From Escherichia coli (GTDB lineage: Bacteria; Pseudomonadota; Gammaproteobacteria; Enterobacterales; Enterobacteriaceae): a DNA stretch of 64,000 bases. A program made the translations under genes and the position numbers. Within the stretch, counting starts at the first letter, position 1; the number at the start of each line of letters is the position of its first letter. Location of the stretch: NCBI RefSeq assembly GCF_030384885.1, contig NZ_CP128613.1; one strand, 5' to 3'. The notes below the pieces were generated by a model. The model was not told the origin of the DNA. It worked only from the letters and a program-made list of their open reading frames with translations, and did no database searches. Below, piece by piece: positions 19,119-60,240 of the stretch.

Positions 19119-20441
<1,323 letters not shown>

Positions 20442-20448
20442 TCTCACC

Positions 20449-23619: not shown

Positions 23620-23640
23620 TTAATTAATGAATGGAAACAT

Positions 23641-23943: not shown

Positions 23944-24004
23944 TTTTATTTATGTCAGGCTATTTAATTATATTTGCGACCTCAACGCATTTTCAGGAGT
24001 ATAA

Positions 24005-24538
24005 ATGCGTAACAAAAAACGCATACTATTCTTGCTAACAGTCATTTTTTGCTTAACAGGTCTTTATTCCTGCAACAAAAATTTTCTCTTACTCTGGGAT
24101 GCCAATAATATGTATGTCAGCACAAGAAATAATATCGATAAAGACAAGGTAAAAATAGAATTCGGTATCAGCGTCAACACGATCAACCGAGAAACGGATG
24201 CCGAATTATTTGCTGACAGAGATAAGTATGCAGTGCTCTTCGATGGTAGCCTGAAAAATAAGATGATAAGCGAATACGGAGAAAATGATTTTTTAATTAC
24301 CTACGATAACCGCTGCTATTTATCATTTCGTCAATTTAAAACAAATCGTCGTCATCAACATGACTATTATTTTGACTTCTTTAACAAGGATGGGAATGTC
24401 TTCGTCACGGTCGAAATTAAAGGTGAGAACCCGCTTAAATTTACGCGTAGTTTTAATGATATGCGTCAGCAGTTTTCACCATTCCGTAAGGGTAGCCCTT
24501 CTCACTCCTGCAAGGTTATTTCTTCAGATCCTTCTTAA
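24005..24538 (+). CDS. Hypothetical exported protein, possible lipoprotein (177 aa), AT-rich accessory ORF 5
   Basis: N-terminal signal peptide MRNKKRILFLLTVIFCLTGLYSC with Cys after hydrophobic core; ggagt RBS upstream; 3' end overlaps convergent gene by 23 nt. Confidence 0.5.
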   Translation: MRNKKRILFLLTVIFCLTGLYSCNKNFLLLWDANNMYVSTRNNIDKDKVKIEFGISVNTINRETDAELFADRDKYAVLFDGSLKNKMISEYGENDFLITYDNRCYLSFRQFKTNRRHQHDYYFDFFNKDGNVFVTVEIKGENPLKFTRSFNDMRQQFSPFRKGSPSHSCKVISSDPS

Positions 24539-26510
24539 ACACTGGTTCTGGACAATCACGACCAAAATGCGCCGCCCAGTCAAAAGATTTACCGTTTTTC
24601 ACGTAGCGTTGATAAATTAATGCACCGGTTTCTGGATCAAGATATCTGATCCAACTTGCAGCATGGCATAACACGGCAGCCCAAGCCTGGGTTTTAGGGT
24701 GAAGTAAATCGGCTGATTGTCCGGCCCATTCCGCAGCCTGCCAGCGGTAATGCAAAAAATGCTCATCAACAGTGGGGATTGCGTGGCGGAAACGTTGTTT
24801 TTCTTTACGACTTATCCACTGATCGTTATTGCTGTATTCAAAGGGTTCTGAATACTGCCCGCTGGTAATGGCATAATCGGGATACATTTCATAAGCCGCC
24901 AATTCGATACCACTGAAACGCAAAAGCCGCGCAGCTTCGTATTGCGCCTGGGCGCGTTGCTTATCAGGGATGTTTTTATTTTTTGCTATCGCCATTAAAT
25001 CAGCCAGTTTTTGTGCGGCCTGGCGATAATTGGGAATATCAAACCAATTGATGGCCTGCTGGTACTGGCCATGACGAATTAATCGTCTACCCAATAACGC
25101 CCGTAATTTAACATCCGTTGGAATGATATCTGGCGAAAGATAATAACCGTCATTGTTATTATTTAAATCTACAGGTTTTAAAGGGTGCTGAGGTACCGGT
25201 ACGTTTTTTTCAACAAACGCCTGTAACTCCGGTAAGGTCAAAACGTTTTCTGCAACCCAGGCTAAATCGGCCCAATAGAGATCTTTGGCCTGGTAAAACA
25301 ATGCGGTGGCCTGAAGATAATCATCGCGTTTTAATGCCAAAATCGCCTGCTCACTGGCAATACGGCAAGATGGGATAATAACTTTATCTCCATGATAATA
25401 AGGACTTTCCGGGTCCATACTTCCCCACACTTCATCGGTCGGGAACATCGGGGCTGCGCGAGCATAGTGACGCGTTGCCAGTGGAATATCTCCGGCTCGT
25501 AATGCCATTTTTGCTTTTAACCATTCGCTTAATCCACTTTCTGGCGCATCCTGCAACAGCGTTTGTGCTAACGAATAATTTCCTGCCCGATACGCCAGTG
25601 CTGCCAGGCGATCGCTATAACTAAATCCTTTAACTCTGTGTTGACTTAGCAACTTAATTAAACGGTCGCGATGCGTTGGACAGGTATAATCTACAAGGTC
25701 CTTAGTACAGGCTTCGCTAACATACCCCCAGTCATGACGAATAAAGAGCTCTGCGATTACCAGTTGCTGAACCAGAGAATCATTAATAACCGACTCCAGC
25801 AGTGGTAAATTTTTCTCCCTGGTTATATACAGCGAAATCATCCGTAGCGACGCTTTCCCGGAGGGCGAACCCTGGGCCGCTTGCCGGGCATACATTTTTA
25901 CTGCCGCAGCGACATCACCTTTTTTCAGATAATAATGCCCAATCTGACCGAGACTGGCGAGAGAGAGCAATTCAGGATCGGCTGCGCCATTACGCACTTC
26001 TTCAATGATTTGCTGATAACGCTGTATGGCCTGCTCAGCAAGTTCCTGATTAAAGCCACCTTTATTGATTATAAGATCGAGATCGTCGTCAGAGGCATCA
26101 AATCCCCCCCTTGCCAGACTATATAGCGCAGCCAGCCGCCATTCTCCTTGCTCTGTTTTCGGCAAGGCTAATAATTGCTGAAAGTATGGGCTATCGTATT
26201 TTCCCTGATGGAAATCCTTAGCTCCTGAATAATAAAGTTCCAGTGCCCGATTTTGCACAGGAGGTTCAGCATCTGTATCTGTCTGCGTTGCCTCTTCAGG
26301 CGTATTTTCTTGCCATACTGGTAAACCAGGATCGCGTTTAACCAACTGTTGTACTTCAAAGACAAAACTGCCATTTGGCATTTCCAGCAGTGCGCTATTG
26401 CGGTCAGTTAACAGATGATTGGGAATAAATGGTCCACAGGCATTAACGTTGGCGCTAATTAGCGAGAGAAATACAACAACGGAAAGCCGCGATATTTTAG
26501 GGGATAACAT
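24516..26510 (-). CDS. Secreted helical-repeat (TPR/Sel1-like) protein of unknown function (~664 aa)
   Basis: Track ORF 24516..26735 trimmed to ATG at 26510 (MLSPKISRLSVVVFLSLISANVNA signal peptide, ggagag RBS, 8 nt after stop of upstream gene); Sel1/TPR-like segments (e.g. VKMYARQAAQG) seen by eye. Confidence 0.6.
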   Translation of the reverse strand: MLSPKISRLSVVVFLSLISANVNACGPFIPNHLLTDRNSALLEMPNGSFVFEVQQLVKRDPGLPVWQENTPEEATQTDTDAEPPVQNRALELYYSGAKDFHQGKYDSPYFQQLLALPKTEQGEWRLAALYSLARGGFDASDDDLDLIINKGGFNQELAEQAIQRYQQIIEEVRNGAADPELLSLASLGQIGHYYLKKGDVAAAVKMYARQAAQGSPSGKASLRMISLYITREKNLPLLESVINDSLVQQLVIAELFIRHDWGYVSEACTKDLVDYTCPTHRDRLIKLLSQHRVKGFSYSDRLAALAYRAGNYSLAQTLLQDAPESGLSEWLKAKMALRAGDIPLATRHYARAAPMFPTDEVWGSMDPESPYYHGDKVIIPSCRIASEQAILALKRDDYLQATALFYQAKDLYWADLAWVAENVLTLPELQAFVEKNVPVPQHPLKPVDLNNNNDGYYLSPDIIPTDVKLRALLGRRLIRHGQYQQAINWFDIPNYRQAAQKLADLMAIAKNKNIPDKQRAQAQYEAARLLRFSGIELAAYEMYPDYAITSGQYSEPFEYSNNDQWISRKEKQRFRHAIPTVDEHFLHYRWQAAEWAGQSADLLHPKTQAWAAVLCHAASWIRYLDPETGALIYQRYVKNGKSFDWAAHFGRDCPEPVFKKDLKK

Positions 26511-27705
26511 TGAACTCTCCTTGTAAATTTGGGGTGCATCGCGCCCATCCCAGCGCACTGCTTTCACCAGCACGCAACTGCCTGGTACTGATGCGAATAA
26601 AACGTAACGAGGATGCGTTGGTTTGTGCCTGATAATGGCCTGCGCCATCAGCATATGTGCATTGAGCAGCAGGCAGCTCGATCTGTTGTGGCAATGGCGC
26701 GTCAATATCACCATTGTTTTTAATGGCCAAATCAATAAGTTGCTTGTCAGCCTGTGGCGAAATTATCAAAGACCAGCGCGGCGTCAAAGGTTTATGGTGA
26801 ATAACGGCATCTAAAGTAGACAGGGACCAGGCGCGGCGATCATTTGCCAGCGGGAGTCGGAACCAGATAAATCCCTGTAACCCTGAGGGCGGTTTTTGTT
26901 CCAGCTGTTGGGTAAAATCAGCCAACGTTTGTGGCGCCACACTCAGCTCCCGCAACTCTTGTGCAATATACAGTGGGGCTTCGCTTTCAATACGGTTATC
27001 GCGCGTCAGCGCAGAACCGTAAGCCGGCAGAGCGATGTAAAAAGGATGGGGAGAAATACGTGCATATTGCGTGCTCCAGCGCTTAGCCAGTTTACTGTCG
27101 AATAATCCCTGTTGCGGCGATAACACCGTATGCACCTGCAAAACAGAAATATCGGCGTCAGCCAGCAGCGCAGGCAGATGTGGTGAATTCAGCCAGTCAG
27201 GTAATGCAGTAATACTGAGTTTTAATTCTGCAGGAAGATTCTGGCGCAATGTCCTTAGCAACTGTTGGTATTCCACCAGTTTTGCCGTTGGCGCATCGAA
27301 ATCAATTTCAATGCCAGCCAGCTTAATACCCGCCTCTTTCCACTCATTCATTGTTCGTACAATGTTCTGCACAACATTTTGTTGATTAATATGAGAGAGC
27401 TTACCGTCCAGTCGCGCAACCAGCCAGACGGGGCGATCATCTTGTTTTATAAATGTTTTATTAACGGCGGTGTAGCGTATACCTTCCTGAGGATGAACTT
27501 GTAGCTCCAGAATGCGTAGCGTTGAGAACAGATTACGGCTCTGTTTTAGTGCGTGCTCATGTTGCGCGGTCCACAAACGCTGCCAGATATAGACTTGTTG
27601 ATCGAGGGGGCGTGTTTTTTGCGGCATAAGCCGGGTCAGCAGCCCATATCCAGAGCCGATAAAAACGATGAGTGAAATGGCAAAAATCCATTTGCGAGAG
27701 GGCAT
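26497..27705 (-). CDS. Membrane-anchored periplasmic protein of unknown function (402 aa)
   Basis: ORF track; single N-terminal TM helix (WIFAISLIVFIGSGYGLL) then soluble domain; first gene of two-gene operon. Confidence 0.6.
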   Translation of the reverse strand: MPSRKWIFAISLIVFIGSGYGLLTRLMPQKTRPLDQQVYIWQRLWTAQHEHALKQSRNLFSTLRILELQVHPQEGIRYTAVNKTFIKQDDRPVWLVARLDGKLSHINQQNVVQNIVRTMNEWKEAGIKLAGIEIDFDAPTAKLVEYQQLLRTLRQNLPAELKLSITALPDWLNSPHLPALLADADISVLQVHTVLSPQQGLFDSKLAKRWSTQYARISPHPFYIALPAYGSALTRDNRIESEAPLYIAQELRELSVAPQTLADFTQQLEQKPPSGLQGFIWFRLPLANDRRAWSLSTLDAVIHHKPLTPRWSLIISPQADKQLIDLAIKNNGDIDAPLPQQIELPAAQCTYADGAGHYQAQTNASSLRFIRISTRQLRAGESSALGWARCTPNLQGEFNVIP

Positions 27706-27759
27706 TTGAACCCGGAATCCATGTGGTCAATAACAGAAAGTATACTGCGGAACTATTTA

Positions 27760-27789
27760 GCGGAGAAATTATTCCATTAATTTCTCCGC
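27760..27789. terminator. Perfect hairpin between kdgK 3' end and accessory operon start
   Basis: gcggagaaatta-ttcc-ttaatttctccgc inverted repeat. Confidence 0.4.
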
Positions 27790-27806
27790 TATGATTGATG
27801 TGTTAT

Positions 27807-28736
27807 TTACTGAGGCATGGCTTCGCGAGGAATAATCGCGCCGCGATACTGAATAACGGTACTTGCGGTCAGGTGCCCGCGTTTCGCCGCATTTTCCGCA
27901 CTGGCGCCCGTCAAACGTACCGCCAGATAACCGGCACTGAAAGAGTCGCCAGCTGCAGTGGTATCGATCACTTTTTCTTTTGGCAGTTTCACCGCCGGAA
28001 CATCCACTAACCCCTCGCCAGCAATGGACACCAGGCAAGAATCCGCCCCGCGTTTCACCACCACTTCTTTCACGCCCGCGTTATGGGTGCGCGCAATGAC
28101 GTCTTCCACCGGTTGTTGACCCCACAGCGCGTCTTCGTCGTCCAGCGTCAGGAAGGCGATATCCGTGCATTCCAGCATTTGCTGGTACATCTGCTGTGTC
28201 TCTTCTTTGCTGGCCCACAAGCGCGGACGGTAGTTATTGTCGAAAATCACTTTTCCACCGTTAGTGCGGCATTCGCGCAGCAGGGAAAGCAGCTTTTCGC
28301 GGCTGGTCGGGCTTAAGATTGCCAGGCTAATCCCGCTCAGGTAGAGATAATCAAAATTCGCCAGCTCTGCACAAATCGCTGCGGATTGCTCACTCTCCAG
28401 CCAAAATTTGGCGGCGGCTTCGTTACGCCAGTAGTAGAACGTACGTTCGCCAGTGCTGTCGGTTTCAATGTAGTAAAGACCCGGCAGACGGTTTTCCATC
28501 CGCTGGGTCAGGGAAGTATCAACGTTCTCGCCGTGCCAGGCGTCCAGCATCTGCTGACTAAAACTGTCCGTTCCCAGCGCCGTCACGTAATGAACGGTTA
28601 ATGCCGCAGGATCGACCTGACGGGCGATATAGACGGAAGTGTTCAGGGTATCGCCGCCGAAACCGCGCTTAACGTCCGCGCCTTTCTCGGAAAGCTCAAT
28701 CATGCATTCGCCAATCACGGCAATCTTTTTGGACAT
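27807..28736 (-). CDS. kdgK: 2-dehydro-3-deoxygluconokinase KdgK (309 aa)
   Basis: ORF track; PfkB-family sugar kinase sequence; size matches. Confidence 0.9.
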   Translation of the reverse strand: MSKKIAVIGECMIELSEKGADVKRGFGGDTLNTSVYIARQVDPAALTVHYVTALGTDSFSQQMLDAWHGENVDTSLTQRMENRLPGLYYIETDSTGERTFYYWRNEAAAKFWLESEQSAAICAELANFDYLYLSGISLAILSPTSREKLLSLLRECRTNGGKVIFDNNYRPRLWASKEETQQMYQQMLECTDIAFLTLDDEDALWGQQPVEDVIARTHNAGVKEVVVKRGADSCLVSIAGEGLVDVPAVKLPKEKVIDTTAAGDSFSAGYLAVRLTGASAENAAKRGHLTASTVIQYRGAIIPREAMPQ

Positions 28737-28966
28737 AGTCGTGAACCTGATCTGTAAAAATTAGCGTTAGTTTGCGCTGTGGTGGTTTGCTGGTCAACCA
28801 TATTAAAACAGTGTTCCATTATTTTTTTGAGCCAGAACGTATTCCTGAAAGATTCCGTAGTGGAGTGGGGAAATTTAACCCGGTCAGGCGGTAAAGTTCT
28901 GCTCTTGCGCGCCGATAATCTTTGTCAAGTCCGGGCAGCATCACTTTTAAACACAGGACATCTTTG

Positions 28967-29734
28967 ATGATAAGGCAGGTTATCCAGCGAATAAGCAACC
29001 CTGAAGCAAGCATCGAGAGCTTGCAGGAACGGCGTTTTTGGTTGCAGTGTGAGCGTGCTTACACCTGGCAGCCGATCTATCAAACCTGCGGACGGTTAAT
29101 GGCCGTGGAGCTATTAACGGTGGTCACGCATCCCTCGAACCCTTTACAACGTCTGCCGCCGGATCGCTATTTTACTGAAATCACCGTCAGCCATCGGATG
29201 GAGGTTGTGAAAGAGCAGATTGATTTGCTGGCGCAAAATGCCGACTTCTTTGTCGAGCACGGCCTGCTGGCATCGGTCAATATTGATGGTCCTACGCTCA
29301 TCGCCCTGCGTCAGCAACCAAAAATCCTGCGCCAGATTGAGCATCTTCCCTGGCTGCGTTTCGAACTGGTAGAACACATCCGCCTGCCAAAAGACTCAAC
29401 CTTTGCCTCGATGTGTGAATTTGGTCCGCTGTGGCTGGATGATTTCGGCACTGGGATGGCAAATTTCTCTGCGCTAAGTGAAGTACGTTACGACTACATC
29501 AAAATCGCCCGTGAGCTGTTTGTGATGCTGCGTCAGTCGCCGGAAGGACGCACGCTCTTTTCTCAGCTTTTACATCTAATGAATCGCTATTGTCGCGGGG
29601 TGATTGTCGAAGGTGTGGAAACGCAGGAAGAGTGGCGCGATGTACAAAATTCGCCTGCATTTGCCGCACAAGGCTGGTTTCTTTCACGCCCGGCACCGAT
29701 AGAAACGCTGAATTCGGCAGTTCTGGCGCTATAA
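28967..29734 (+). CDS. pdeH: c-di-GMP phosphodiesterase PdeH/YhjH (EAL only, 255 aa)
   Basis: ATG at 28967 (MIRQVIQRISNPEA...) inside track ORF 28922..29734; EAL domain motifs. Confidence 0.9.
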   Translation: MIRQVIQRISNPEASIESLQERRFWLQCERAYTWQPIYQTCGRLMAVELLTVVTHPSNPLQRLPPDRYFTEITVSHRMEVVKEQIDLLAQNADFFVEHGLLASVNIDGPTLIALRQQPKILRQIEHLPWLRFELVEHIRLPKDSTFASMCEFGPLWLDDFGTGMANFSALSEVRYDYIKIARELFVMLRQSPEGRTLFSQLLHLMNRYCRGVIVEGVETQEEWRDVQNSPAFAAQGWFLSRPAPIETLNSAVLAL

Positions 29735-29804
29735 GCTGCCTCATTTTCTGCCTGGCTGGACTATCTTTAGGACTGGCACAGGAAGAAATATGAGGAAGCG
29801 AATG

Positions 29805-31865
29805 ATGAGCAAGGCAGGCAAAATAACCGCTGCGATTTCAGGGACTTTCTTGTTGTTGATTGTCGTGGCGATCATTTTGATTGCAACATTTGACTGGAAT
29901 CGACTCAAACCGACCATCAACCAGAAAGTCTCTGCGGAGTTGAATCGTCCATTCGCTATCCGTGGCGATCTGGGCGTGGTGTGGGAGCGGCAAAAACAAG
30001 AAACCGGCTGGCGCAGCTGGGTGCCGTGGCCTCATGTGCATGCAGAAGACATCATTCTTGGCAATCCGCCGGATATTCCCGAAGTAACAATGGTGCATTT
30101 GCCGCGGGTAGAAGCGACGCTGGCCCCGCTGGCGTTGCTGACCAAAACGGTCTGGCTGCCGTGGATAAAACTGGAGAAGCCCGACGCGCGTCTGATTCGT
30201 CTCTCTGAAAAGAACAATAACTGGACCTTTAATCTCGCCAATGATGACAACAAAGACATGAATGCAAAGCCGTCTGCGTGGTCGTTTCGACTGGATAATA
30301 TTCTGTTCGATCAAGGGCGGATCGCTATTGATGACAAAGTAAGCAAAGCGGATCTGGAAATTTTTGTCGATCCGTTAGGCAAGCCGCTGCCGTTCAGTGA
30401 AGTTACCGGATCGAAAGGTAAAGCGGACAAAGAAAAGGTGGGCGATTACGTTTTTGGTCTGAAGGCGCAGGGACGTTATAACGGTGAACCGCTCACGGGC
30501 AAAGGTAAAATCGGCGGTATGCTGGCACTACGCGGCGAAGGTACACCGTTTCCGGTACAGGCTGATTTCCGCTCCGGGAATACTCGCGTCGCTTTTGATG
30601 GCGTCGTGAATGACCCAATGAAGATGGGCGGTGTCGATTTACGGCTTAAATTTTCTGGCGATTCGCTGGGTGATCTCTATGAACTGACGGGCGTTCTGCT
30701 GCCCGATACCCCGCCGTTTGAAACGGATGGTCGGCTGGTAGCGAAAATCGACACTGAAAAATCGTCGGTCTTTGATTATCGCGGTTTTAATGGGCGCATT
30801 GGCGATAGCGATATCCACGGTTCTCTGGTCTACACCACCGGCAAGCCACGACCAAAACTGGAAGGTGATGTCGAATCGCGGCAATTGCGGCTGGCAGATT
30901 TAGGGCCATTGATTGGCGTTGATTCTGGAAAAGGTGCAGAAAAGTCGAAACGGTCTGAGCAGAAGAAAGGCGAAAAAAGCGTTCAGCCTGCGGGCAAAGT
31001 GCTGCCTTATGACCGCTTCGAAACCGATAAATGGGACGTCATGGATGCCGATGTCCGCTTCAAAGGTCGGCGCATTGAACATGGTAGTAGCTTGCCGATT
31101 AGCGATCTCTCTACCCATATCATTCTCAAAAATGCTGACCTGCGCCTGCAACCGCTGAAATTTGGCATGGCAGGCGGCAGCATTGCGGCGAATATTCATC
31201 TGGAAGGCGATAAAAAGCCGATGCAAGGGCGGGCTGATATTCAGGCGCGTCGGCTGAAACTCAAAGAACTGATGCCCGATGTAGAACTGATGCAGAAGAC
31301 GCTGGGGGAAATGAACGGTGACGCGGAACTACGCGGTAGCGGTAACTCGGTGGCGGCGCTTTTAGGCAACAGTAACGGCAACCTGAAACTGTTGATGAAT
31401 GACGGGCTGGTGAGCCGCAACCTGATGGAGATTGTCGGCCTGAATGTCGGCAACTACATTGTCGGTGCGATATTTGGTGATGATGAGGTGCGGGTGAACT
31501 GCGCGGCAGCGAATCTGGATATTGCCAACGGTGTAGCGCGTCCGCAGATTTTTGCTTTTGATACTGAGAATGCGTTGATCAATGTTACCGGCACGGCAAG
31601 TTTTGCTTCGGAGCAACTGGATTTGACTATCGATCCAGAAAGTAAAGGGATTCGGATTATCACACTGCGTTCGCCGCTGTATGTGCGTGGGACATTTAAA
31701 AATCCGCAGGCTGGGGTGAAAGCCGGACCGTTGATTGCTCGCGGAGCCGTCGCGGCGGCACTGGCAACGCTGGTAACACCGGCGGCGGCGTTACTGGCGC
31801 TGATCTCTCCTTCCGAAGGGGAGGCTAATCAGTGTCGGACGATTTTGTCGCAGATGAAGAAGTGA
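29805..31865 (+). CDS. yhjG: AsmA-family inner-membrane protein YhjG (686 aa)
   Basis: ATG at 29805 with gaggaag RBS; N-terminal TM anchor, long periplasmic domain. Confidence 0.85.
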   Translation: MSKAGKITAAISGTFLLLIVVAIILIATFDWNRLKPTINQKVSAELNRPFAIRGDLGVVWERQKQETGWRSWVPWPHVHAEDIILGNPPDIPEVTMVHLPRVEATLAPLALLTKTVWLPWIKLEKPDARLIRLSEKNNNWTFNLANDDNKDMNAKPSAWSFRLDNILFDQGRIAIDDKVSKADLEIFVDPLGKPLPFSEVTGSKGKADKEKVGDYVFGLKAQGRYNGEPLTGKGKIGGMLALRGEGTPFPVQADFRSGNTRVAFDGVVNDPMKMGGVDLRLKFSGDSLGDLYELTGVLLPDTPPFETDGRLVAKIDTEKSSVFDYRGFNGRIGDSDIHGSLVYTTGKPRPKLEGDVESRQLRLADLGPLIGVDSGKGAEKSKRSEQKKGEKSVQPAGKVLPYDRFETDKWDVMDADVRFKGRRIEHGSSLPISDLSTHIILKNADLRLQPLKFGMAGGSIAANIHLEGDKKPMQGRADIQARRLKLKELMPDVELMQKTLGEMNGDAELRGSGNSVAALLGNSNGNLKLLMNDGLVSRNLMEIVGLNVGNYIVGAIFGDDEVRVNCAAANLDIANGVARPQIFAFDTENALINVTGTASFASEQLDLTIDPESKGIRIITLRSPLYVRGTFKNPQAGVKAGPLIARGAVAAALATLVTPAAALLALISPSEGEANQCRTILSQMKK

Positions 31866-31872
31866 TGGAAAC

Positions 31873-31970
31873 TGCCGGATGCGGCGTGAACGCCTTATCC
31901 GGCCTACAAATCCTTGCGAATTCAATATATTTTATGGAAATTCAGGCCTGATAAGCGTAGCGCATCAGGC
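31873..31970. repeat. REP/BIME palindromic element
   Basis: gccggatgcggcgtgaacgccttatccggcctac and inverted partner aggcctgataagcgtagcgcatcaggc. Confidence 0.75.
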
Positions 31971-31982
31971 TTTTCACTCTTA

Positions 31983-33305
31983 TTACAACGACTGATGTCG
32001 CGTTTCATGGGTCAGCAGCAGGGCGATTAACGTCAAGCCAGCCATCGCCGCCAGATATAACCCCACCGCACCTAACCCGTAGTTAGTCTGCAACCAGGCT
32101 GCGATATATGGCGCAACGGAAGCCCCAAGAATCGACGATACGTTGTAAGAGAACGATGCTCCGGTGTAACGCACTTCTGTCGGGAACAGCTCTGGTAACA
32201 GCGCGCCCATCGGCCCGAAGGTCAGTCCCATCAGACTTAACCCCAGCAGCAGGAAGGCAAAAACCAGAATCGGGTTGCCAGAACCGAGCAGCGGGTTAAA
32301 GGCGAACAGCGCGAACAGGATGATCAGCGTGGTGATGATTACCATGCTTTTACGGCGACCAAAGGCATCAGCCAGTAATCCGGCGACTGGCACCATCACG
32401 CCAAAACCAATCACTGCCATCATCAGCATCCACAACACTTCGTTACGCGGCAGGCCAAGCCCAACTGGCGCGGCGGCGGTACTAAAGGTCATAGAGTAGA
32501 CCGTCATGATGTAAAACAGCGTATAGGTTGCCAGCATAATGAACGTACCCAGTACGGTTACGCGAACATGTTTGGTCAGCAGCGTACCCAGCGGGATCTT
32601 CACCTGTTTTTTCGCTTTAGCGACTTTCTCAAACACCGGCGACTCATGCAGCGATACGCGAACATACAGGCCGATAATGACCAGCACCGCCGAGAAGATA
32701 AATGGCACCCGCCAGCCCCAGCTCATAAACTGCTCGTCGGTCAGTAGCCAGGAAAGCAGTAAGAAAGTGCCGTTGGCAAAGAAGAAGCCAATCGGTGCGC
32801 CCAGCTGCGGGAAGGAGCCGTACAATGCACGTTTGCGCGGTGGTGCGTTCTCGGTTGCCAGCAGCGCCGCTCCGCCCCATTCGCCGCCTAAGCCCAGACC
32901 CTGACCAAATCGAGCCAGTGCCAGCAGCAGCGGGGCGAAAATACCAATCGTGGCATAGCCCGGCAGCAGACCAATCACCACGGTCGAAATCCCCATCGTT
33001 AGCAACGAGGCGACCAGCGTCGCTTTACGCCCAACGCGATCGCCAAAATGACCAAAGACGGCAGAGCCAATAGGGCGCGCGACGAAGGCGATGGCGAAGG
33101 TGGCAAGCGACTGTAGCGTTGCTGCCGTAGGATCACCCTGTGGGAAGAAGATATGCGGGAACACAATAACGGCTGCCGTTGCGTAAATATAGAAGTCGAA
33201 GAACTCAATGGCTGTACCGATGAGTGAGGCAACCAGAACTTTATTACGTGAGTTTACCGGCGTAAATTCCTGGTTATTTTCGAGTGTTGTGGCTGTTGCT
33301 TGCAT
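31983..33305 (-). CDS. yhjE: MFS transporter YhjE (440 aa)
   Basis: ORF track; 12-TM MFS-like sequence. Confidence 0.9.
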   Translation of the reverse strand: MQATATTLENNQEFTPVNSRNKVLVASLIGTAIEFFDFYIYATAAVIVFPHIFFPQGDPTAATLQSLATFAIAFVARPIGSAVFGHFGDRVGRKATLVASLLTMGISTVVIGLLPGYATIGIFAPLLLALARFGQGLGLGGEWGGAALLATENAPPRKRALYGSFPQLGAPIGFFFANGTFLLLSWLLTDEQFMSWGWRVPFIFSAVLVIIGLYVRVSLHESPVFEKVAKAKKQVKIPLGTLLTKHVRVTVLGTFIMLATYTLFYIMTVYSMTFSTAAAPVGLGLPRNEVLWMLMMAVIGFGVMVPVAGLLADAFGRRKSMVIITTLIILFALFAFNPLLGSGNPILVFAFLLLGLSLMGLTFGPMGALLPELFPTEVRYTGASFSYNVSSILGASVAPYIAAWLQTNYGLGAVGLYLAAMAGLTLIALLLTHETRHQSL

Positions 33306-33614
33306 AATCTTTTCTTATTTTTTGGCTAACGAATAGCCATATTACGCACAGCAAAAGTGATATTTCAATGTGTAACAAATCGCGGAGTTGGTCGAAAATC
33401 AGCCAAAAAGGGAATAATGTTTAAGCTGGTGATTTTTCTTCTATGAAATGCTTCACATAATTTCATAAATGGTGGATAAAACTGGTTTTAGGTTAAATAA
33501 AAGTTACCAACTGGATTTATATGCTGGAGTAATGAGTTGGAATGAAATTGTTTGCTCCTAAGAGATGACAGAAAAGGCTCTGGGGAAGAGTTTAAGTGGT
33601 TATGTGCGCATGAT

Positions 33615-33708
33615 AGCCGGATGCGATGCTGGCGCATTTTATCCGGCCTACGGGGAGCCAGGCCGAATAAATTCGTAGGCCGGATAAGGCGTTACGCTGC
33701 ATCCGGCA
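33615..33708. repeat. REP/BIME palindromic element pair
   Basis: agccggatgcg...atccggcctac and gtaggccggataaggcgttacgctgcatccggca. Confidence 0.75.
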
Positions 33709-33712
33709 TATT

Positions 33713-34726
33713 TTAAGACTGCGTTTTCCCCGGCATTCTCGGGTCGTCTTTGTATTCGGCGGTGGCAATCCACGCCGCGCAAAACAGCGTCAGACGAGCG
33801 AAGAAGTAGAAAAACGCCATCAGTCCCAGCACGGAGCCAAATGCTGCGCCAGACGGAGATTTCATCAGCGATGGCAGTGTGTAGGTCATCACGATTTTAA
33901 TCACTTCAAAACCTATAGCAGCAAGAAATGTTCCGCGAATTAGCGCTTTTTTGCGCGGACGGTGGCGCGGCAATCGCCAAAAGATCCAGAAGAAAAGCAG
34001 ATAGTTGGCGAAGATGGAAATCGCAAGACCAATCAACCGCCACGTTGGTTTCAGCCACTCAATGCTGTTCAGGTGCAGGGCGCTAATAATCATTTGCTGC
34101 GCCGAACCGGCAACCGAGGTGATCGAAAGCGTCACAATGAGCGCAATCAACAAACCAATCAGCGAAATAAAATCACGCAGATATTTAACCCAAAATTTTT
34201 CCTGATCCTGTGGCGAACGTTCCCAGACATCGCGCGATTGAGCGCGAATCGCTTCACGCAGGTTACCCATCCAGTTGATGCCGGAATAAAGCGCCACCGC
34301 CAGGCCGACAAGCCCTACCGTCGTACGCTGTTGAACGGCGGTATTGATGGTGTTTTTCAATGTAGCTGCCAGCGTCGGATCGCTAATATTTTGCAGAATT
34401 TTGTCGAAGATATCCTGCAGCAGCATCGGATGGGAGGCCAGAACGAAACCAGCGGCGGCAAACGACACCATCAAAATCGGAATCATCGACAAAAATGAGA
34501 AATAGGTGATAGCCGCACCAAACTGATTACCCAGCCGATCGTTAAAGCGTTCAGTCGCGCGAATCAGGTGCGCAATAATCGGTTGGCGTTGGACTTTTTC
34601 GGCAGTAGTGGTGACGGTTTCCAGCGCCTGGCTAACTTTGCCGCCTTTCTCGCTATTATCCAGCGGTTTAATCGGCTCGAGCTCCAGATCCTGGGTGGGA
34701 CGTTTAATCTCGTTTTCCTGCGTCAT
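33713..34726 (-). CDS. yhjD: Inner membrane protein YhjD (YihY/BrkB family, 337 aa)
   Basis: ORF track; multi-TM. Confidence 0.85.
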   Translation of the reverse strand: MTQENEIKRPTQDLELEPIKPLDNSEKGGKVSQALETVTTTAEKVQRQPIIAHLIRATERFNDRLGNQFGAAITYFSFLSMIPILMVSFAAAGFVLASHPMLLQDIFDKILQNISDPTLAATLKNTINTAVQQRTTVGLVGLAVALYSGINWMGNLREAIRAQSRDVWERSPQDQEKFWVKYLRDFISLIGLLIALIVTLSITSVAGSAQQMIISALHLNSIEWLKPTWRLIGLAISIFANYLLFFWIFWRLPRHRPRKKALIRGTFLAAIGFEVIKIVMTYTLPSLMKSPSGAAFGSVLGLMAFFYFFARLTLFCAAWIATAEYKDDPRMPGKTQS

Positions 34727-38899: not shown

Positions 38900-40297
38900 A
38901 TGAAAATGGTCTCACGTATTACCGCGATCGGCCTGGCTGGCGTCGCGATTTGCTATTTAGGGTTATCTGGTTATGTGTGGTACCACGATAATAAACGCAG
39001 TAAACAGGCCGATGTTCAGGCATCTGCTGTCAGTGAAAATAATCAGGTTTTAGGTTTTCTTCGCGAAAAAGGATGCGACTATTGTCATACGCCTTCGGCA
39101 GAATTACCCGCCTATTATTATATTCCTGGCGCGAAACAGTTGATGGATTACGACATTAAGCTTGGATATAAATCTTTTAACCTCGAGGCCGTGCGTGCGG
39201 CTCTGTTGGCAGATAAACCCGTTTCGCAAAGCGATCTGAATAAGATTGAATGGGTGATGCAGTATGAAACTATGCCGCCAACGCGTTACACCGCGCTACA
39301 CTGGGCGGGTAAGGTGAGTGATGAAGAGCGGGCGGAAATACTTGCCTGGATTGCAAAACAGCGCGCGGAATATTACGCCAGTAATGATACTGCTCCGGAG
39401 CATCGCAATGAACCGGTGCAGCCTATTCCGCAAAAACTGCCTACCGATGCGCAAAAAGTGGCGTTGGGTTTTACGCTGTATCATGATCCCCGTTTATCGG
39501 CTGATAGCACCATTTCATGTGCACATTGCCATGCGTTAAATGCGGGTGGCGTTGATGGCAGAAAAACGTCGATTGGTGTTGGTGGTGCCGTTGGACCGAT
39601 TAACGCACCGACGGTCTTTAACTCAGTATTTAACGTTGAGCAGTTCTGGGATGGTCGTGCGGCAACATTGCAGGATCAGGCGGGGGGACCGCCGTTGAAC
39701 CCGATTGAAATGGCGTCGAAATCCTGGGACGAAATTATTGCTAAGCTGGAAAAAGATCCGCAGCTTAAAGCGCAGTTCCTCGAAGTCTATCCGCAAGGTT
39801 TCAGTGGCGAAAATATTACTGATGCTATTGCTGAATTTGAGAAAACATTAATTACGCCGGATTCCCCATTTGATAAATGGTTGCGTGGAGATGAGAATGC
39901 GCTGACGGTGCAACAGAAAAAAGGCTATCAATTATTTAAAGATAATAAATGTGCAACTTGTCATGGTGGTATTATTCTCGGCGGACGTTCTTTCGAGCCG
40001 TTGGGGCTGAAAAAAGACTTTAACTTTGGGGAAATTACGGCGGCGGATATTGGTCGTATGAATGTTACTAAAGAAGAGCGTGATAAATTGCGTCAGAAAG
40101 TACCCGGTTTACGTAACGTTGCTTTAACGGCACCGTACTTCCATCGCGGTGACGTGCCGACGCTGGACGGGGCGGTAAAACTGATGCTGCGCTATCAGGT
40201 AGGCAAAGAGCTGCCGCAGGAGGATGTGGATGATATCGTAGCTTTCCTGCACAGTCTGAACGGGGTATATACGCCGTATATGCAGGATAAACAATAA
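38900..40297 (+). CDS. yhjA: Cytochrome c peroxidase YhjA/Ccp (465 aa)
   Basis: Multiple CxxCH haem motifs (CDYCH, CAHCH, CATCH). Confidence 0.9.
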   Translation: MKMVSRITAIGLAGVAICYLGLSGYVWYHDNKRSKQADVQASAVSENNQVLGFLREKGCDYCHTPSAELPAYYYIPGAKQLMDYDIKLGYKSFNLEAVRAALLADKPVSQSDLNKIEWVMQYETMPPTRYTALHWAGKVSDEERAEILAWIAKQRAEYYASNDTAPEHRNEPVQPIPQKLPTDAQKVALGFTLYHDPRLSADSTISCAHCHALNAGGVDGRKTSIGVGGAVGPINAPTVFNSVFNVEQFWDGRAATLQDQAGGPPLNPIEMASKSWDEIIAKLEKDPQLKAQFLEVYPQGFSGENITDAIAEFEKTLITPDSPFDKWLRGDENALTVQQKKGYQLFKDNKCATCHGGIILGGRSFEPLGLKKDFNFGEITAADIGRMNVTKEERDKLRQKVPGLRNVALTAPYFHRGDVPTLDGAVKLMLRYQVGKELPQEDVDDIVAFLHSLNGVYTPYMQDKQ

Positions 40298-40507
40298 TTA
40301 ATTTGATCGCCTGAACAGGAATGTTTGGGCGATTTTTATTACGACAATAAAGTCTGTTTTTAATATTATCATGTTAAATGTTTATATTATAAAAAGTCGT
40401 TTTTCTGCTTAGGATTTTGTTATTTAAATTAAGCCTGTAATGCCTTGCTTCCATTGCGGATAAATCCTACTTTTTTATTGCCTTCAAATAAATTTAAGGA
40501 GTTCGAA

Positions 40508-42276: not shown

Positions 42277-43101
42277 ATGCAATCACTACATGGTAATTGT
42301 CTAATTGCGTACGCAAGACATAAATATATTCTCACCATGGTTAATGGTGAATATCGCTATTTTAATGGCGGTGAACTGGTTTTTGCGGATGCAAGTCAAA
42401 TTCAAGTGGATAAGTGTGTCGAGAATTTTGTATTAGTTTCAAGGGACACGCTTTCATTATTTCTCCCGATGCTCAAGGAGGAGGCATTAAATCTTCATGC
42501 ACATAAAAAAGTTCCTTCGTTACTCGTTCATCACTGTACCAGAGATATTCCTGTTTTTCAGGAGGTTGCGCAACTATCGCAGAATAAGAATCTGCGCTAT
42601 GCAGAAATGCTCCGTAAAAGAGCATTAATCTTTGCGTTGTTATCTGTTTTCCTGGAGGACGAGCAGTTTATACCGCTGCTTCTGAACGTTTTGCAACCGA
42701 ACATGCGAACACGAGTTTGTACGGTCATCAATAATAATATCGCCCATGAGTGGACATTAGCCCAAATCGCCAGCGAGCTGTTGATGAGTTCAAGCCTGTT
42801 AAAGAAAAAATTGCGCGAAGAAGGTACGTCATATTCACAGTTGCTTACTGAGTGTAGAATGCAACGTGCTTTACAACTTATTGTTATACATGGGTTTTCA
42901 ATTAAAAGAGTCGCAGTGTCCTGTGGTTATCACAGCGTGTCGTATTTCATTTACGTTTTTCGAAATTATTATGGGATGACGCCCACAGAGTATCAGGAGC
43001 GATCGGCACAAGAATTGCCGAACCGTGACTCGGTGGCAAGTATTGTTGCACAAGGGAATTTTTACGGCACTGACCGTTCTGCGGAAGAAATAAGATTATA
43101 G
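42277..43101 (+). CDS. gadX: AraC-family acid-resistance regulator GadX (274 aa)
   Basis: ORF track; C-terminal AraC HTH. Confidence 0.95.
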   Translation: MQSLHGNCLIAYARHKYILTMVNGEYRYFNGGELVFADASQIQVDKCVENFVLVSRDTLSLFLPMLKEEALNLHAHKKVPSLLVHHCTRDIPVFQEVAQLSQNKNLRYAEMLRKRALIFALLSVFLEDEQFIPLLLNVLQPNMRTRVCTVINNNIAHEWTLAQIASELLMSSSLLKKKLREEGTSYSQLLTECRMQRALQLIVIHGFSIKRVAVSCGYHSVSYFIYVFRNYYGMTPTEYQERSAQELPNRDSVASIVAQGNFYGTDRSAEEIRL

Positions 43102-43116
43102 TTTTTACCCAGACAT

Positions 43117-43222
43117 AAAAAAAACCCGGCATAGGGGACCGGGAAGAGGATAGTCTGCCGTCTCCAGACTAATAAACCGTTATAACACTCCCTGTTGGCA
43201 CGGGAAACTTTGTGCTCTCAGT
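43117..43222 (-). ncRNA. gadY: GadY small RNA (antisense to gadX 3' end)
   Basis: Minus-strand sequence ACTGAGAGCACAAAGTTTCCCGTGCCAACAGGGAGTGTTATAACGG...CCTATGCCGGGTTTTTTTT matches recalled GadY, ending in a hairpin and T-run. Confidence 0.8.
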
Positions 43223-43468
43223 AAGTTAAATATAACTTTTACTGGAGATAAGATCAGCCATTTTTTTATAAACATAAGCTATGCGCTGTGTGAAAATATA
43301 TTCTTCTTGCATTTTCTTATTATCAATTAACTGTTATGTCAAACTACTTTTTGGATAACTTTTGGTCCTACCAAATATGGCAGTTTATGCACGAAGAAGC
43401 GGTCTGGCATCATTTCATTAGTATACTGAAATTGAAATAATCGCAGTAATGAAATATAAGGGATAGTC

Positions 43469-44197
43469 ATGACTCATGTCTGCTCGGTGATCCTCGTTCG
43501 TCGTTCATTGGATATTCATCATGAACAGCAAAAAATATCGTTGCACAACGAAAGTATTCTACTGCTGGATAAAAATTTGGCAGACGATTTTGCGTTTTGT
43601 TCACCGGATACGCGACGACTGGATATCGATGAGCTGACAGTTTGCCATTACTTACAAAATATTCGTCAGTTACCGCGCAATTTAGGGTTACATAGCAAAG
43701 ACCGTTTGTTAATTAACCAGTCCCCGCCCATGCCTCTGGTGACGGCGATTTTTGATAGTTTCAATGAATCCGGAGTAAATTCGCCGATACTGAGCAATAT
43801 GCTCTACCTTTCCTGTTTATCTATGTTTTCTCATAAGAAAGAACTAATCCCCTTACTTTTCAATAGTATCAGCACTGTTTCAGGAAAAGTTGAACGCCTT
43901 ATTAGCTTTGATATCGCTAAACGTTGGTATCTACGCGATATCGCGGAAAGAATGTATACCAGCGAGAGTCTAATCAAAAAAAAGTTGCAGGACGAAAATA
44001 CCTGTTTCAGTAAAATATTACTCGCTTCCAGGATGTCGATGGCCAGACGATTACTCGAGTTACGTCAAATTCCTTTGCATACTATTGCTGAAAAATGTGG
44101 GTATAGCAGTACGTCATACTTTATAAACACATTTCGACAATATTATGGTGTAACGCCACATCAGTTTGCGCAACATTCGCCGGGTACCTTTTCCTGA
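43469..44197 (+). CDS. gadW: AraC-family regulator GadW (242 aa)
   Basis: ORF track; AraC HTH. Confidence 0.95.
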   Translation: MTHVCSVILVRRSLDIHHEQQKISLHNESILLLDKNLADDFAFCSPDTRRLDIDELTVCHYLQNIRQLPRNLGLHSKDRLLINQSPPMPLVTAIFDSFNESGVNSPILSNMLYLSCLSMFSHKKELIPLLFNSISTVSGKVERLISFDIAKRWYLRDIAERMYTSESLIKKKLQDENTCFSKILLASRMSMARRLLELRQIPLHTIAEKCGYSSTSYFINTFRQYYGVTPHQFAQHSPGTFS

Positions 44198-44558: not shown

Positions 44559-47500
44559 TTACGCTTTTTTAAAGCGGGCAAAGAGATGTTCCACTACAAC
44601 GAAAAAGACTGGAACGAAGTAAATGGCCAGCACTGTTGCGGCAAACATCCCGCCCATCACGCCGGTACCTACCGCGTTTTGCGCGCCGGAACCGGCACCA
44701 TGACTGATTACCAGCGGCAGCACGCCGAGAATAAAGGCCAGAGAGGTCATCAGGATTGGGCGTAAACGCATTCGCGCCGCTTCGATGATCGCCTCTATCG
44801 GCGTTTTCCCTTCTTTCTGCATCATCTCAACGGCAAATTCGACGATCAGGATGGCGTTCTTGGCGGAAAGCCCGATGGTAGTCAGCAAACCAACCTGGAA
44901 GTAGACGTCATTACTTAAGCCGCGCAGATCGGTGGCCAGTAATGCGCCAACGACGCCTAACGGTACAACCAACATCACCGAGAACGGAATTGACCAGCTC
45001 TCATAAAGTGCGGCAAGGGCGAGGAACACCACGACCAGTGAAATGGCATACAGCGCGGGAGCCTGATTTGAGGATAACGCTTCCTGATACGACAGTCCGG
45101 TCCATGAGTAGCCGACGCCTGCCGGAAGTTTAGCGACCAGGTCTGCCATAAATTTCATGGCGTCACCGGTACTTTTCCCGGCCGCCGCTTCACCTAAAAT
45201 CTCCATTGACGGGATGCCGTTGTAGCGTTCCAGTCGCGGTGAACCATAGGTCCATTCGGTAGACGAATAGGCCGAAAGCGGTGCCATCGTGCCAGAGGCG
45301 TTGCGTACATACCACTGGTTGATGTTATCCGGCAACATACGGAACGGCGTGCCTGCCTGGACATACACTTTTTTCACCCGCCCCTGGTTGAGGAAGTCGT
45401 TCACGTAGCTGCTGCCGAAGGCGGTGGAAATTGTCTGGTTGATATCAGACAGCGCCACACCCATTGCCTCGGCTTTCGCGGCGTTGACGTTCACTTTGAA
45501 CATCGGCGTATCTTCCAGTCCGTTCGGGCGTACCCCGGTGACCTGATTCGGTGATTGCGCTGCCAGTGATAATAGCTCGTTTCGCGCCTGGGTCAGTTTT
45601 TCGTGCCCCAGGTTACCGTTGTCCAGCAGTTCCATATCAAAACCTGACGCGGTACCCAGTTCAGCCACCGCGGGTAAGTTGAACGGGAAGACGACGGCTT
45701 TATTGATACTGCTTAACGCAATCATTGCCCGCTGAATGATCGCGGTAACCGAGTTTTCCTCACCGACACGTTCAGACCACGGTTTGAGGCTGATAAACGC
45801 CAGACCGTTGTTTTGCCCCTGGCCACTGAAGCCAAAGCCGCCAACGGTAAACACCGACTGAACATTATCTTTCTCTTTTGTCAGATAATAATCAGTCACC
45901 TGTTGCAGCACTTTCGTGGTGTTAACCATGGTTGCACCGGAAGGTAACTGCGCGGTGGTCATAAATACCCCCTGATCCTCTTCTGGTAAGAAAGAGGTCG
46001 GCGTACGCAGGAACAGCACCGCCATCCCGGCGCAAATCAGCAGGTAGACCACCATGTAGCGACCGGTACAACGCAACAGCGAGCGGGTGCTGTCGGTATA
46101 GTGATGAGTCGATTTTTCAAACAGCGTGTTGAAGCGTGCGAACAGGGCGTTAGGTTTGTGACCGCCTTCCGGCGCGGCTTTCAGAATGGTGGCGCACAGG
46201 GCAGGGGTCAGGCTCATTGCCACAAATACTGAAAGCAGCATGGAGGAGATCAGCGTGATGGAGAACTGTCGGTAGATCTCCCCGGTTGCACCGCTCATAA
46301 AGGCCATCGGCATAAACACTGCGGAAAGAACAACGGCAATCCCGACCAGCGCACGTTGGATCTGCCCCATCGATTTATGCGTCGCTTCCTTCGGCGGTAG
46401 TTTATCTTCCGCAATGACACGCTCGACGTTCTCCACCACCACGATGGCGTCATCCACCAGTAACCCTATCGCCAGCACCATCCCGAACATAGTTAACGTG
46501 TTGATGGTGAAACCGACCGCCGACAAGATCGCAAACGTCCCGAGAATAACCACCGGTACGGCAATCGTCGGGATGATTGTGGCGCGGAAATTCTGCAAAA
46601 ACAGATACATGACCAGGAAGACGAGGATGATAGCCTCAACCAGCGTTTTGAAAACTTCCTGAATAGAAATTTTGATAAACGGTGTGGTGTCGTAAGGATA
46701 AACCGTCTTCAGGCTTGTGGGGAAATAAGCCGATAAACGGTTCAGCTCCTCTTTCACCGCTCGCGAGGTATCCAGGGCGTTTGCTCCGGTAGCCAGTTTG
46801 ATGGCGATCCCGGCAGCAGGTTTGCCGTTATAGCGCGCCACGGTGGAATAATCTTCCGCCCCAAGTTCGACGCGGGCGACATCACGCAGCAGTACTTGCG
46901 AACCATCTTGCTGAACTTTCAACAGGATTTTGCCAAATTCTTCCGGCGTTTGCAGACGCGTCTGCACAATGATCGAGGCGTTCAGTTGCTGGTCTGCCGC
47001 CTGTGGCATGCCACCCAGTTGACCACCGGAAATCTGGTTGTTTTGCACCTTAATCTGGGAAATAACATCGGAAGGTACCAGGTTATATTTATTGAGTTTT
47101 TGCGGGTCCAGCCAGATACGCATGGCGTACTCGGAACCAAAGAGTTGTACGCTACCAACGCCCGCGGTACGGCTTAGCGGGTCTTTGATATTAGACGCTA
47201 CATAGTCCGCGATATCGTACTGGTTGAGACTGCCGTTATCAGAAATGAACGCCGCTACCATCAGGATATTACTGCTCGACTTATCGACGCTAATACCCTG
47301 CTGCTGCACCGCTTCAGGTAATGAAGGCATAGCGAGTTGCAGTTTATTTTGCACCTGAACCTGCGCGATATCAGGCGATGTCCCCGTCTCAAAGGTCAGA
47401 GTGATGGAGGCATTACCCGCCGCATCGCTGGTTGAAGACATGTACATCAGGCCATCAAGCCCATTCATATTTTGCTCAATCACCTGAGTGACCGAGTCTT

Positions 47501-47672
47501 CTACCGTTTGCGCATCGGCACCCGGATAGGTTGCGCTGACGGTAATGGTTGGTGGCGCAATCTGCGGATATTGCGCAACCGGTAAGTTCATGATCGCCAG
47601 ACCACCTGCAAGCATCATAATAATGGCAAGTACCCAGGCAAAAACCGGGCGATCAATAAAATAGTTAGCCAT
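44559..47672 (-). CDS. mdtF: RND multidrug efflux pump MdtF (1037 aa)
   Basis: ORF track; AcrB-like RND transporter. Confidence 0.95.
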
Positions 47673-48854: not shown

Positions 48855-49192
48855 TTTAGTCCCTGAAAATTCTTGAGATATAACGGTTCTTTAAATTGCG
48901 CGCGAGGAGAGGTATGAGGGATTTACAGACCAGCGGCATAGTGGGGTTGTCAGCCAGTAAGATGGGATGCAAGCACAGTGATCGACATGGTGAGGTCAAC
49001 GACAAAAAAAATGTTGCCGTTCTGCCAACAGTTCCTGCCAGCATTCGGGCAACGAAGGGTTCTACTGGTGGATACACATACCAGGGGAATAAAGTCGTTT
49101 TCGCCTCTCCTTTAGTCATCACCGGGGATAATGAAATCAGCATCTGCATCCCTCTTCATGCCTGCCATCATTTTCAGTTAATTATGTCCTGA

Positions 49193-49720
49193 CTAAAAAT
49201 AAGATGTGATACCCAGGGTGACGATGTCGCTCATACGTCTTAGTTTCAGCTTGTACATAATGTTGAATTTCTGAATCTTTAATGTTTGTTGCGAAATATT
49301 GAGCGTTGACGTGATATTGCTTTCGTTTTTGTTTTTCAGAATCAGCTGCATAATTTTGAACTGATTATGTGAAAAACATAATTGTGAATTCTTATGGGGC
49401 AAGTGTTTACCATAAGTAATCTCAAGAAGATTTTTGATACTTTCTTTGCGGCTGACAAAATAAATAGGCGCTTTAGCTTTTAGTTTACTGATGTGATAAG
49501 GTGCCAAAACAATAATTCTCTCGGCGTCTAATTTCTCCAGAAATTTAATCGCTTCTTCATCAAGGATATGGTTGTGATAGGTATCAATGATAACCTTGAA
49601 GGGTTTATTACCTACTTTTTTGATCTCTGACAGGGAATTGATTTTTATCATTTCGTGATTATCTTTCAACTGCCAAAAGCCCTGTAAAAGAAAAGAATCT
49701 TTCGTCATGAGAAAAATCAT
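49193..49720 (-). CDS. gadE: LuxR-family acid-resistance master regulator GadE (175 aa)
   Basis: ATG at 49720 (MIFLMTKDSFLLQGFW...) with ggag RBS, inside track ORF 49193..49798. Confidence 0.9.
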   Translation of the reverse strand: MIFLMTKDSFLLQGFWQLKDNHEMIKINSLSEIKKVGNKPFKVIIDTYHNHILDEEAIKFLEKLDAERIIVLAPYHISKLKAKAPIYFVSRKESIKNLLEITYGKHLPHKNSQLCFSHNQFKIMQLILKNKNESNITSTLNISQQTLKIQKFNIMYKLKLRRMSDIVTLGITSYF

Positions 49721-50518
49721 AACTTGCTCCTTAGCCGTTATCGTTTCGAACATGTCATCCTTTTCATTATTTACATCCCTGTCCGAATCGTTGTTCAATA
49801 TAGTAAACGCCTATAAGAACCTTGCCCTTCGTGAACTAATACGTCTATTAACACTAATCAATAATTCAGATTTATCCATCACGCACTCCATATATTGATC
49901 CTAAGTAAAATTCCTGGTTGTTATCAGATTGTAAACTGCAAACAAAAAATTAACGTTTGCGGATTACTGCCCAAGAATAAGTTATCAATAACCAGTTTGT
50001 GATCTCTGAAGAATATTACTAAAGTTAAAATGTAATCCGATTTAAATATCGAGTCTCCTTGTTTCGACTTAAGCTGGCAATTGGATTGCCAGCTTTCTTT
50101 TAACGCATTGAAATTACCTGAGTAAATAACTCATTCATGTCTTCAGGTTATTATATAGCGTCTGGAGACACGGATATTTATGCAATGTAATCAACGCCAA
50201 TTGCAAAAAAATGAACCCGGATTACTTATTTAACCGCCCATAGCATCAACGCCTACGGAACTCTTTGTTCACTTTCCCACAGCACTTTTAAAACATTAAA
50301 CCTGACTACGGAAAATATCAGCCATGATAATGTTTGAAATGGCTAATTTGCCATGCAATGAAAAAAATCAGATAAAATTCAGTAGGTTGAAATACTTATC
50401 AGCAGGTAATTATTTCAATGATAGCGCGCAATTGATCTAAAATGCTGTGTAGCGGAGAGAGTATTAATTGGATCATAGTCACATCAAGTGACTATGATCC
50501 AGGTGGCAATAGGGATAA
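49721..50518 (-). promoter_or_regulatory. Long AT-rich gadE upstream control region
   Basis: ~800 bp non-coding AT-rich tract between hdeD 3' end and gadE start; established knowledge that gadE has an extended multi-promoter regulatory region. Confidence 0.6.
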
Positions 50519-59758: not shown

Positions 59759-59911
59759 ATTGCGCTCCTGATTGTTGCAGGTAGTGTCTCTCTTCGAAGC
59801 GGATAAGTCAAAAACATATATGTTTTAACGAATGTGTAAGTGCAGAGGAAGGTAATAGGTGTGAATTAAGCGTTGGGTGTTCATTTGAAAGGAAGTCTGA
59901 ATCAGGATGTA

Positions 59912-60005
59912 AAAAAACCGACTTTGCGTCGGTTTTTTACTCTTCAGCCAGAGTTGGTGGCTCTGGCTGGAGTGAGAATGCCCACATCTAACGGTTCAAT
60001 ACTAT
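59912..60005 (-). ncRNA. agrB: AgrB-like sRNA (antisense regulator of dinQ); ends approximate
   Basis: Repeat unit 'ggctctggctggagtgaga-tgcccacatctaac' whose minus-strand transcript is complementary to the dinQ leader copy at ~60395-60430; ends in hairpin ccgac-gcaaa-gtcgg plus T-run. Confidence 0.45.
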
Positions 60006-60147
60006 TAGCCAGTGGCTAACATTGCAAGCGTTAGCGATTTCTTCAGCTGGCGAAGGGACAGTTTGCTATACATGGTGGTGAAAGAGGATTGATATACTTT
60101 CATCGGGTCGCTGCCGTACCAAGCCTTGTCCGAATCCGGACGTAAAA

Positions 60148-60240
60148 AAACCGACTTCGCGTCGGTTTTTTTACTCTTCAGCCCAGAATTGGTGGCTCTG
60201 GCTGGAGTGAGATAGCCATCATCTAACACATCAATGCTAA
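60148..60240 (-). ncRNA. agrA: AgrA-like sRNA (antisense regulator of dinQ); ends approximate
   Basis: Second copy of the repeat plus the same terminator hairpin. Confidence 0.45.

Follow-up and report, generated by a model that had tools for sequence, protein, structure and literature searches.

The intergenic region between gadX and gadW in the 64-kb stretch of Escherichia coli DNA analysed here (the window) extends from 43102 to 43468 and contains, on the minus strand at 43117..43222, the gene of the small RNA GadY. Upstream on the plus strand lies gadX, which encodes an AraC-family activator of acid resistance of 274 aa (42277..43101), and downstream on the same strand lies gadW, which encodes an AraC-family regulator of 242 aa (43469..44197). 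The gadX product was recognized by the NCBIfam GadX equivalog NF007432 with 593.5 bits (cut-off 500). The gene gadW was assigned by its position, its length and its identity to K-12 b3515, and the genome with an intergenic region identical to that of the window annotates it as such. Compared with the K-12 genes, nucleotide identity is 94.4% for gadX and 95.9% for gadW. Further genes of the neighborhood are ccp (38900..40297, plus strand), gadA, with a glutamate decarboxylase equivalog match of 693 bits, and mdtF (44559..47672, minus strand). The gene order gadA-gadX-gadY-gadW-mdtF is that of K-12, with the acid fitness island running the opposite way. The strand of gadY is opposite to that of its two neighbors gadX and gadW, and the gene is divergent from gadW.

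An Rfam scan of the whole window at gathering thresholds returned a single match to GadY (RF00122), located at 43225..43112 on the minus strand, covering model positions 1–114 of 114 with 150 bits (gathering score, 45; E = 8.3e-32). As the reference we used gadY of K-12 MG1655 (b4452), an annotated ncRNA of 106 nt at NC_000913.3 3664864..3664969. In the alignment, window positions 43222..43117 are identical to it at 106 of 106 nt, with the +1 an A at 43222 and the 3′ end of the U-tract at 43117. By its sequence, the interval 43117..43222 is, on its minus strand, the gadY gene known from the acid fitness island of E. coli. The length of full-length GadY has been reported as 105 nt, next to processed forms of 90 and 59 nt (PMC5686845); the one-base difference from the annotated 106 nt falls in the U-tract. 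By transfer from K-12, expression as RNAs of ~105, 90 and 59 nt, dependence on RpoS and binding of Hfq would be expected in this strain as well.

The sequence-only reading had placed GadY on this interval of the minus strand, and both the alignment and the full-length Rfam match confirmed it. Its outer range, 43102..43468, is the entire gadX-gadW intergenic region, of which the RNA covers only 43117..43222. GadY has been studied since 2004, and its correct recognition at this place is an ordinary finding. Coding interpretations were rejected: GadY holds only an AUG within the terminator and a 10-codon frame starting with GUG, and the 61-aa minus-strand ORF at 42947..43132 merely extends from the terminator AUG antisense into gadX.

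The window is, as its matches among complete genomes indicate, from a minority E. coli lineage. A 24-kb query from it (10000..34000) is 99.6% identical to strain 2013C-4282, other best full-length matches being ~94–95% identical, and at least 80% of the query is covered in one place in only 200 genomes. Per genome, the same query matches at a median of 25 places, and it thus contains repeated elements. For the gadX-gadW segment (42277..44197), no more than 4 of 5426 genomes reach an identity of 99% or above.

Further RNA loci were noticed elsewhere in the window. Two tandem ldr/rdl type I toxin-antitoxin units occupy 1898..2623, where two minus-strand matches to Rfam rdlD (1919..1984 and 2402..2467; 85 and 90 bits) are each antisense to an ORF ending in a 35-aa Ldr-like peptide, MTLAELGMAFWHDLAAPVIAGILAS(M/L)IVN(W/S)LNKRK. 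In K-12, there is presumably a single ldrD/rdlD at the corresponding locus. The ES205 sRNA family of Rfam matched at 49004..49075 on the minus strand with 105 bits (threshold 86), between the stop of gadE (ORF 49193..49798) and the start of mdtE (48854) and hence in the gadE 3′ UTR. This match recurs in two other loci compared, with 100 bits each, and it is probably the K-12 sRNA GadF. Two AgrB-family antisense RNA matches stand side by side at 59909..59991 and 60142..60226 (minus strand; 90 and 87 bits); they are agrA/agrB, the pair to be expected at the dinQ locus close to arsR-gor.

Predicted fold, terminator and promoter motifs of gadY

The minimum-free-energy fold of the 106-nt RNA agrees with the Rfam consensus structure. 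It consists of stem-loop 1 (nt 1–47; 43176..43222) and stem-loop 2 (nt 52–72; 43151..43171), the latter with a GGA at the stem/loop junction, followed by the single-stranded sequence UCCUCUU, a terminator hairpin at nt 80–98 and U8. Together, the 6-bp GC-rich hairpin (43143..43125) and the U8 (43124..43117) form an intrinsic terminator at 43117..43143 on the minus strand. In the terminator scan this minus-strand site, CCCGGTCCCCTATGCCGGG with T8 behind it, ranked highest among the terminator-like sites of the region, and the terminal hairpin with its U-tract is present as the sequence-only reading had described it. On the plus strand, A8 comes before the hairpin and no T-run after it. Therefore, it is not the terminator of gadX, an assignment that we considered and rejected. 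Between gadX and gadW, the scan found no terminator-like site on the plus strand, in keeping with the gadX-gadW read-through mRNA of the literature.

The stability of the GadY fold is no greater than that of shuffled sequence (z = −0.73), hence GadY is not detectable by thermodynamics alone. Two GGA motifs occur in the RNA, at nt 32 and nt 58. These may be CsrA sites, because GadY has been reported to titrate CsrA, affecting pgaABCD and biofilm formation (PMC10057817).

The gadY promoter was read from the sequence and from published motifs and was placed at 43226..43261 on the minus strand, where the sequence upstream of the +1 reads ...AAAAAAATGGCTGATCTTATCTCCAGTAAAAGTTATATTTAACTT. The −10 element TATATT at 43234..43229 (−12 to −7) is correctly placed for this +1 and is followed by TAA at 43228..43226, an arrangement that resembles the extended −10 region favored by sigma-S. 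The best −35 candidate, CTGATC at 43257..43252, is weak, and because of this weak −35 the promoter was not reported by a simple sigma-70 scan.

A putative GadX/GadW box at 43261..43242 (−20 to −39, minus strand) matches the ChIP-exo motif AKGKCTGWTWTTWWYMYVAK (PMC4918353) with two mismatches. The motif was found three times in the window, compared to 0.46 matches expected by chance. The two further matches, at 40350..40369 (plus strand) upstream of gadA and at 50306..50325 (minus strand) between gadE and hdeD, lie where sites for GadX and GadW would be expected. The first eight bases of the match in the gadY promoter, ATGGCTGA at 43261..43254, are a perfect fit to the AppY motif ATGSCWGM, which overlaps the gadY −35 (PMC10057817). 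Both AppY and ArcA have been described as inputs at this promoter (PMC10057817, PMC11230228), and regulation of gadY by SdiA is reported in the literature. Positions −1 to −60 are 92–98% identical across lineages. An exact 18-nt promoter pattern was found among the loci only in the genome with the identical intergenic region, due to a polymorphism at 43246/43247. GadX and GadW are said to act at the divergent gadY-gadW promoters, according to the title of a 2008 report by Tramonti.

Conservation of gadY and variability of its flanks

Of 5426 complete E. coli genomes, 5412 carry the 114-nt span of the Rfam match with an identity of at least 99%. The 367-bp intergenic region reaches this level in only 14 of these genomes and is 90–95% identical in 4539. 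The gadY ncRNA is listed only in K-12 MG1655 and in no non-K-12 RefSeq record that we examined, despite the same or nearly the same sequence, hence a reading based on ORFs or on annotation misses it. The practical point is that gadY is overlooked in such records though its sequence is nearly always there.

Species-representative genomes were searched for the GadX peptide FRNYYGMTP by means of a degenerate pattern, an approach that avoids a bias towards conserved GadY. The search returned five Escherichia-lineage loci, two labelled E. coli and one each from Escherichia sp. E1V33, Escherichia sp. MOD1-EC7003 and E. whittamii, as well as six unrelated AraC-family loci that were used as negative controls. 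Full-length GadY stands beside gadX in all five Escherichia loci (123–150 bits) and was found in none of the six controls; these counts apply to the loci returned by the peptide, and species outside these returns (e.g. E. albertii, E. fergusonii or E. marmotae) are not to be called negative for gadX or GadY.

Site variability was determined by comparing nine lineages with the window, i.e. ten Escherichia lineages in all. Within GadY, 2 of 106 sites vary (1.9%), versus 42.7% of the sites in gadX, 32.9% in gadW and 48.9% in the rest of the intergenic region. The value is 80% for the 15 nt that separate the gadX stop from the 3′ end of GadY, and 23% for positions −1 to −60 of the gadY promoter. 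In the surrounding ~2.5 kb, 960 of 2544 sites vary (38%), and the binomial probability of finding at most two variable sites among the 106 of GadY is 3e-19. Among all 106-nt stretches of the 2650-nt region, the one with the fewest variable sites begins at 43116/43117; the runner-up among those not overlapping it has 22 such sites. Variability resumes at 43115 and at 43223, just outside both ends of GadY.

The only two substitutions in GadY among the ten lineages, G31U and U47C, occur in E. whittamii and Escherichia sp. E1V33, and both are located in stem-loop 1. Each breaks a predicted pair of that stem-loop, and no compensatory change was found in GadY, as judged from two variable sites in ten lineages. 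Without covariation, the constraint visible here is one on primary sequence. In E. whittamii, GadY is identical at 104 of 106 positions versus ~80% identity of gadX and gadW to the copies in the window. Among ordinary E. coli, comparisons of K-12, O157 and Nissle show an invariant GadY. The gadX gene itself is unusually polymorphic in such strains, with up to 54 of 825 nt differing (6.5%; O157 versus Nissle), and K-12 differs from Nissle at 51.

Escherichia sp. MOD1-EC7003 has lost ~620 bp by deletion, and with them the promoter of gadX and its first ~198 codons. This genome keeps a 76-aa ORF of the gadX C-terminus, an intact GadY (106/106) and an intact gadW, a state compatible with roles of GadY beyond gadX. 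A different lesion was seen in a pig isolate (NZ_CP062863.1, 227866..230985), where an IS5-family element is inserted in the gadX-gadW segment and gadX is annotated as two pieces.

Proposed action of GadY on the gadX-gadW mRNA and possible sources of its invariance

The 3′ end of GadY lies 16 nt beyond the gadX stop codon. Thus, there is no overlap with coding sequence and GadY is antisense to the gadX 3′ UTR, as the sequence-only reading had proposed. Its predicted cis target is the gadX 3′ UTR, or gadX-gadW intercistronic segment, at 43117..43222 on the plus strand, with full complementarity from the shared DNA.

In K-12, GadY is an Hfq-binding RNA that is transcribed from an RpoS-dependent promoter upon entry into stationary phase (PMC11230228, PMC11300174). 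According to the model of 2004, it pairs with the gadX 3′ UTR and stabilizes the gadX mRNA, and this model is still quoted in the same way (PMC10057817). In a later refinement, the bicistronic gadX-gadW mRNA is cut in the paired region once GadY has paired with it; RNase III participates, and cleavage persists without it, suggesting a further nuclease (PMC3919570). The separated gadX and gadW transcripts are described as more stable in PMC10783499 and PMC11230228, the former being inconsistent about the nuclease, with RNase E in its text and RNase III in a figure legend. Moreover, sdiA mRNA has been reported as a target of GadY (PMC11300174), and many Hfq-bound mRNA partners and an action in trans have been described (PMC11230228). 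The stabilization of gadX by pairing, as stated in the sequence-only reading, hence stands as the published 2004 model (PMC10057817) but is incomplete, as it lacks the cleavage of gadX-gadW and the roles involving Hfq, CsrA and trans targets.

The locus analysed here and that of K-12 (b4452) share the same RNA with its three stem-loops and U8 tail, its position between gadX and gadW and the promoter motifs. The rest of the intergenic region is 92.3% identical, and the gadX stop is separated from the GadY 3′ end by one base less than in K-12. Identity, anatomy, context, promoter and terminator motifs and conservation were observed directly in the DNA compared, and transcription, cleavage and stabilization would follow from the K-12 literature through the identity of the sequences. 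On this basis we are very confident that gadY is best explained as the sRNA gene of the acid fitness island, engaged in the cleavage and stabilization of gadX-gadW and in a feedback loop.

The following course of events is the most probable one. Transcription of gadY, divergent from gadW, would start from a promoter with a good −10, a poor −35 and a GadX/GadW box plus an AppY motif over the −35, and it would stop at the hairpin and the eight U. GadY and the gadX 3′ UTR come from opposite strands of the same DNA, so that GadY is perfectly complementary to the intercistronic RNA of gadX-gadW. The resulting duplex would be cut, partly by RNase III, and the cut gadX and gadW transcripts would accumulate to higher levels. 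More GadX and GadW would raise the expression of the genes for glutamate-dependent acid resistance, and both regulators would act back on the gadY promoter, closing a feedback loop.

Other chromosomal antisense RNAs, among them type I antitoxins (OrzO/zorO, Sok/hok) and lambda OOP/cII-O, likewise form a duplex with their target that is cleaved within, RNase III being involved (PMC3919570). Pairing destroys or silences the target in these systems, whereas in the case of GadY the gadX and gadW products reportedly rise. GadY also binds Hfq (PMC11300174, PMC11230228), which fully complementary antisense RNAs do not usually do. Similar to GadY, SraG is described as an sRNA in the intergenic region of co-transcribed genes (rpsO and pnp) on the opposite strand (PMC5029454), but at another locus and with another sequence.

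Complementarity between an antisense RNA and its target survives any mutation since both are read from the same DNA. Therefore, pairing cannot account for the invariance of GadY, and something else constrains its sequence. Candidate constraints are protein binding, trans targets, nuclease recognition and a joint constraint on two overlapping RNAs. One possibility is that GadY is real but that its sequence is fixed mainly by roles other than the one in cis, namely Hfq-dependent pairing in trans, e.g. with sdiA, and titration of CsrA, the effect on gadX-gadW being one function among several. This would fit the 104 of 106 invariant positions, which pairing does not explain against 30–49% variable sites in the flanks, the unchanged GadY of MOD1-EC7003, in which gadX is cut to its last 76 codons, the literature on Hfq-bound GadY-mRNA complexes, on CsrA titration (PMC10057817) and on the target sdiA, and the two GGA motifs. 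Nevertheless, we regard it as rather unlikely. A double constraint on both strands, consisting of GadY structure and protein binding on the one and of gadX-gadW RNA structure and cleavage sites on the other, could also explain the invariance, and gadW is intact in the genome with the truncated gadX, so that a role in cis is conceivable there. Moreover, dominance of such roles adds to the explanation by the acid fitness island sRNA gene and does not replace it.

Conservation alone is blind to the strand, and the conserved block could in principle be an element of the gadX 3′ UTR that functions on the plus strand only, as a terminator, stabilizer or processing site, with no antisense RNA involved. 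We consider this very improbable. The run of A lies before the hairpin on that strand and no T-run after it, the promoter and terminator signals point to transcription of the minus strand, and the block is bounded exactly by the +1 and the U-tract end of the minus-strand transcript. In addition, the identical sequence in K-12 is an annotated and experimentally studied ncRNA. That a silent relic or a fortuitous similarity in a divergent lineage accounts for the match, as the absence of a feature at this position from the RefSeq annotation of the closest relatives might suggest, is hardly credible given a full-length match with E = 8e-32, intact promoter motifs, a K-12-identical sequence despite ~5% background divergence (about 5–6% in the surroundings), with which a relic would be expected to diverge together, and an annotation gap that is general.

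Within the explanation of gadY as the acid fitness island sRNA gene, we tentatively entertain, at somewhat less than an even chance, the idea that nearly every nucleotide of GadY is held by additional sequence-specific roles and that GadY is chiefly a global trans-acting RNA whose antisense location is incidental. The additional roles, advanced with the same reserve, might comprise trans targets reached through Hfq, titration of CsrA and nuclease recognition on both strands. If true, this would be supporting comparative evidence rather than a discovery, as a role in trans has already been raised in the literature. The sharply bounded invariant island within the fast-evolving, polymorphic gadX-gadW region clearly shows selection on the primary sequence of the RNA, with a source other than antisense pairing.
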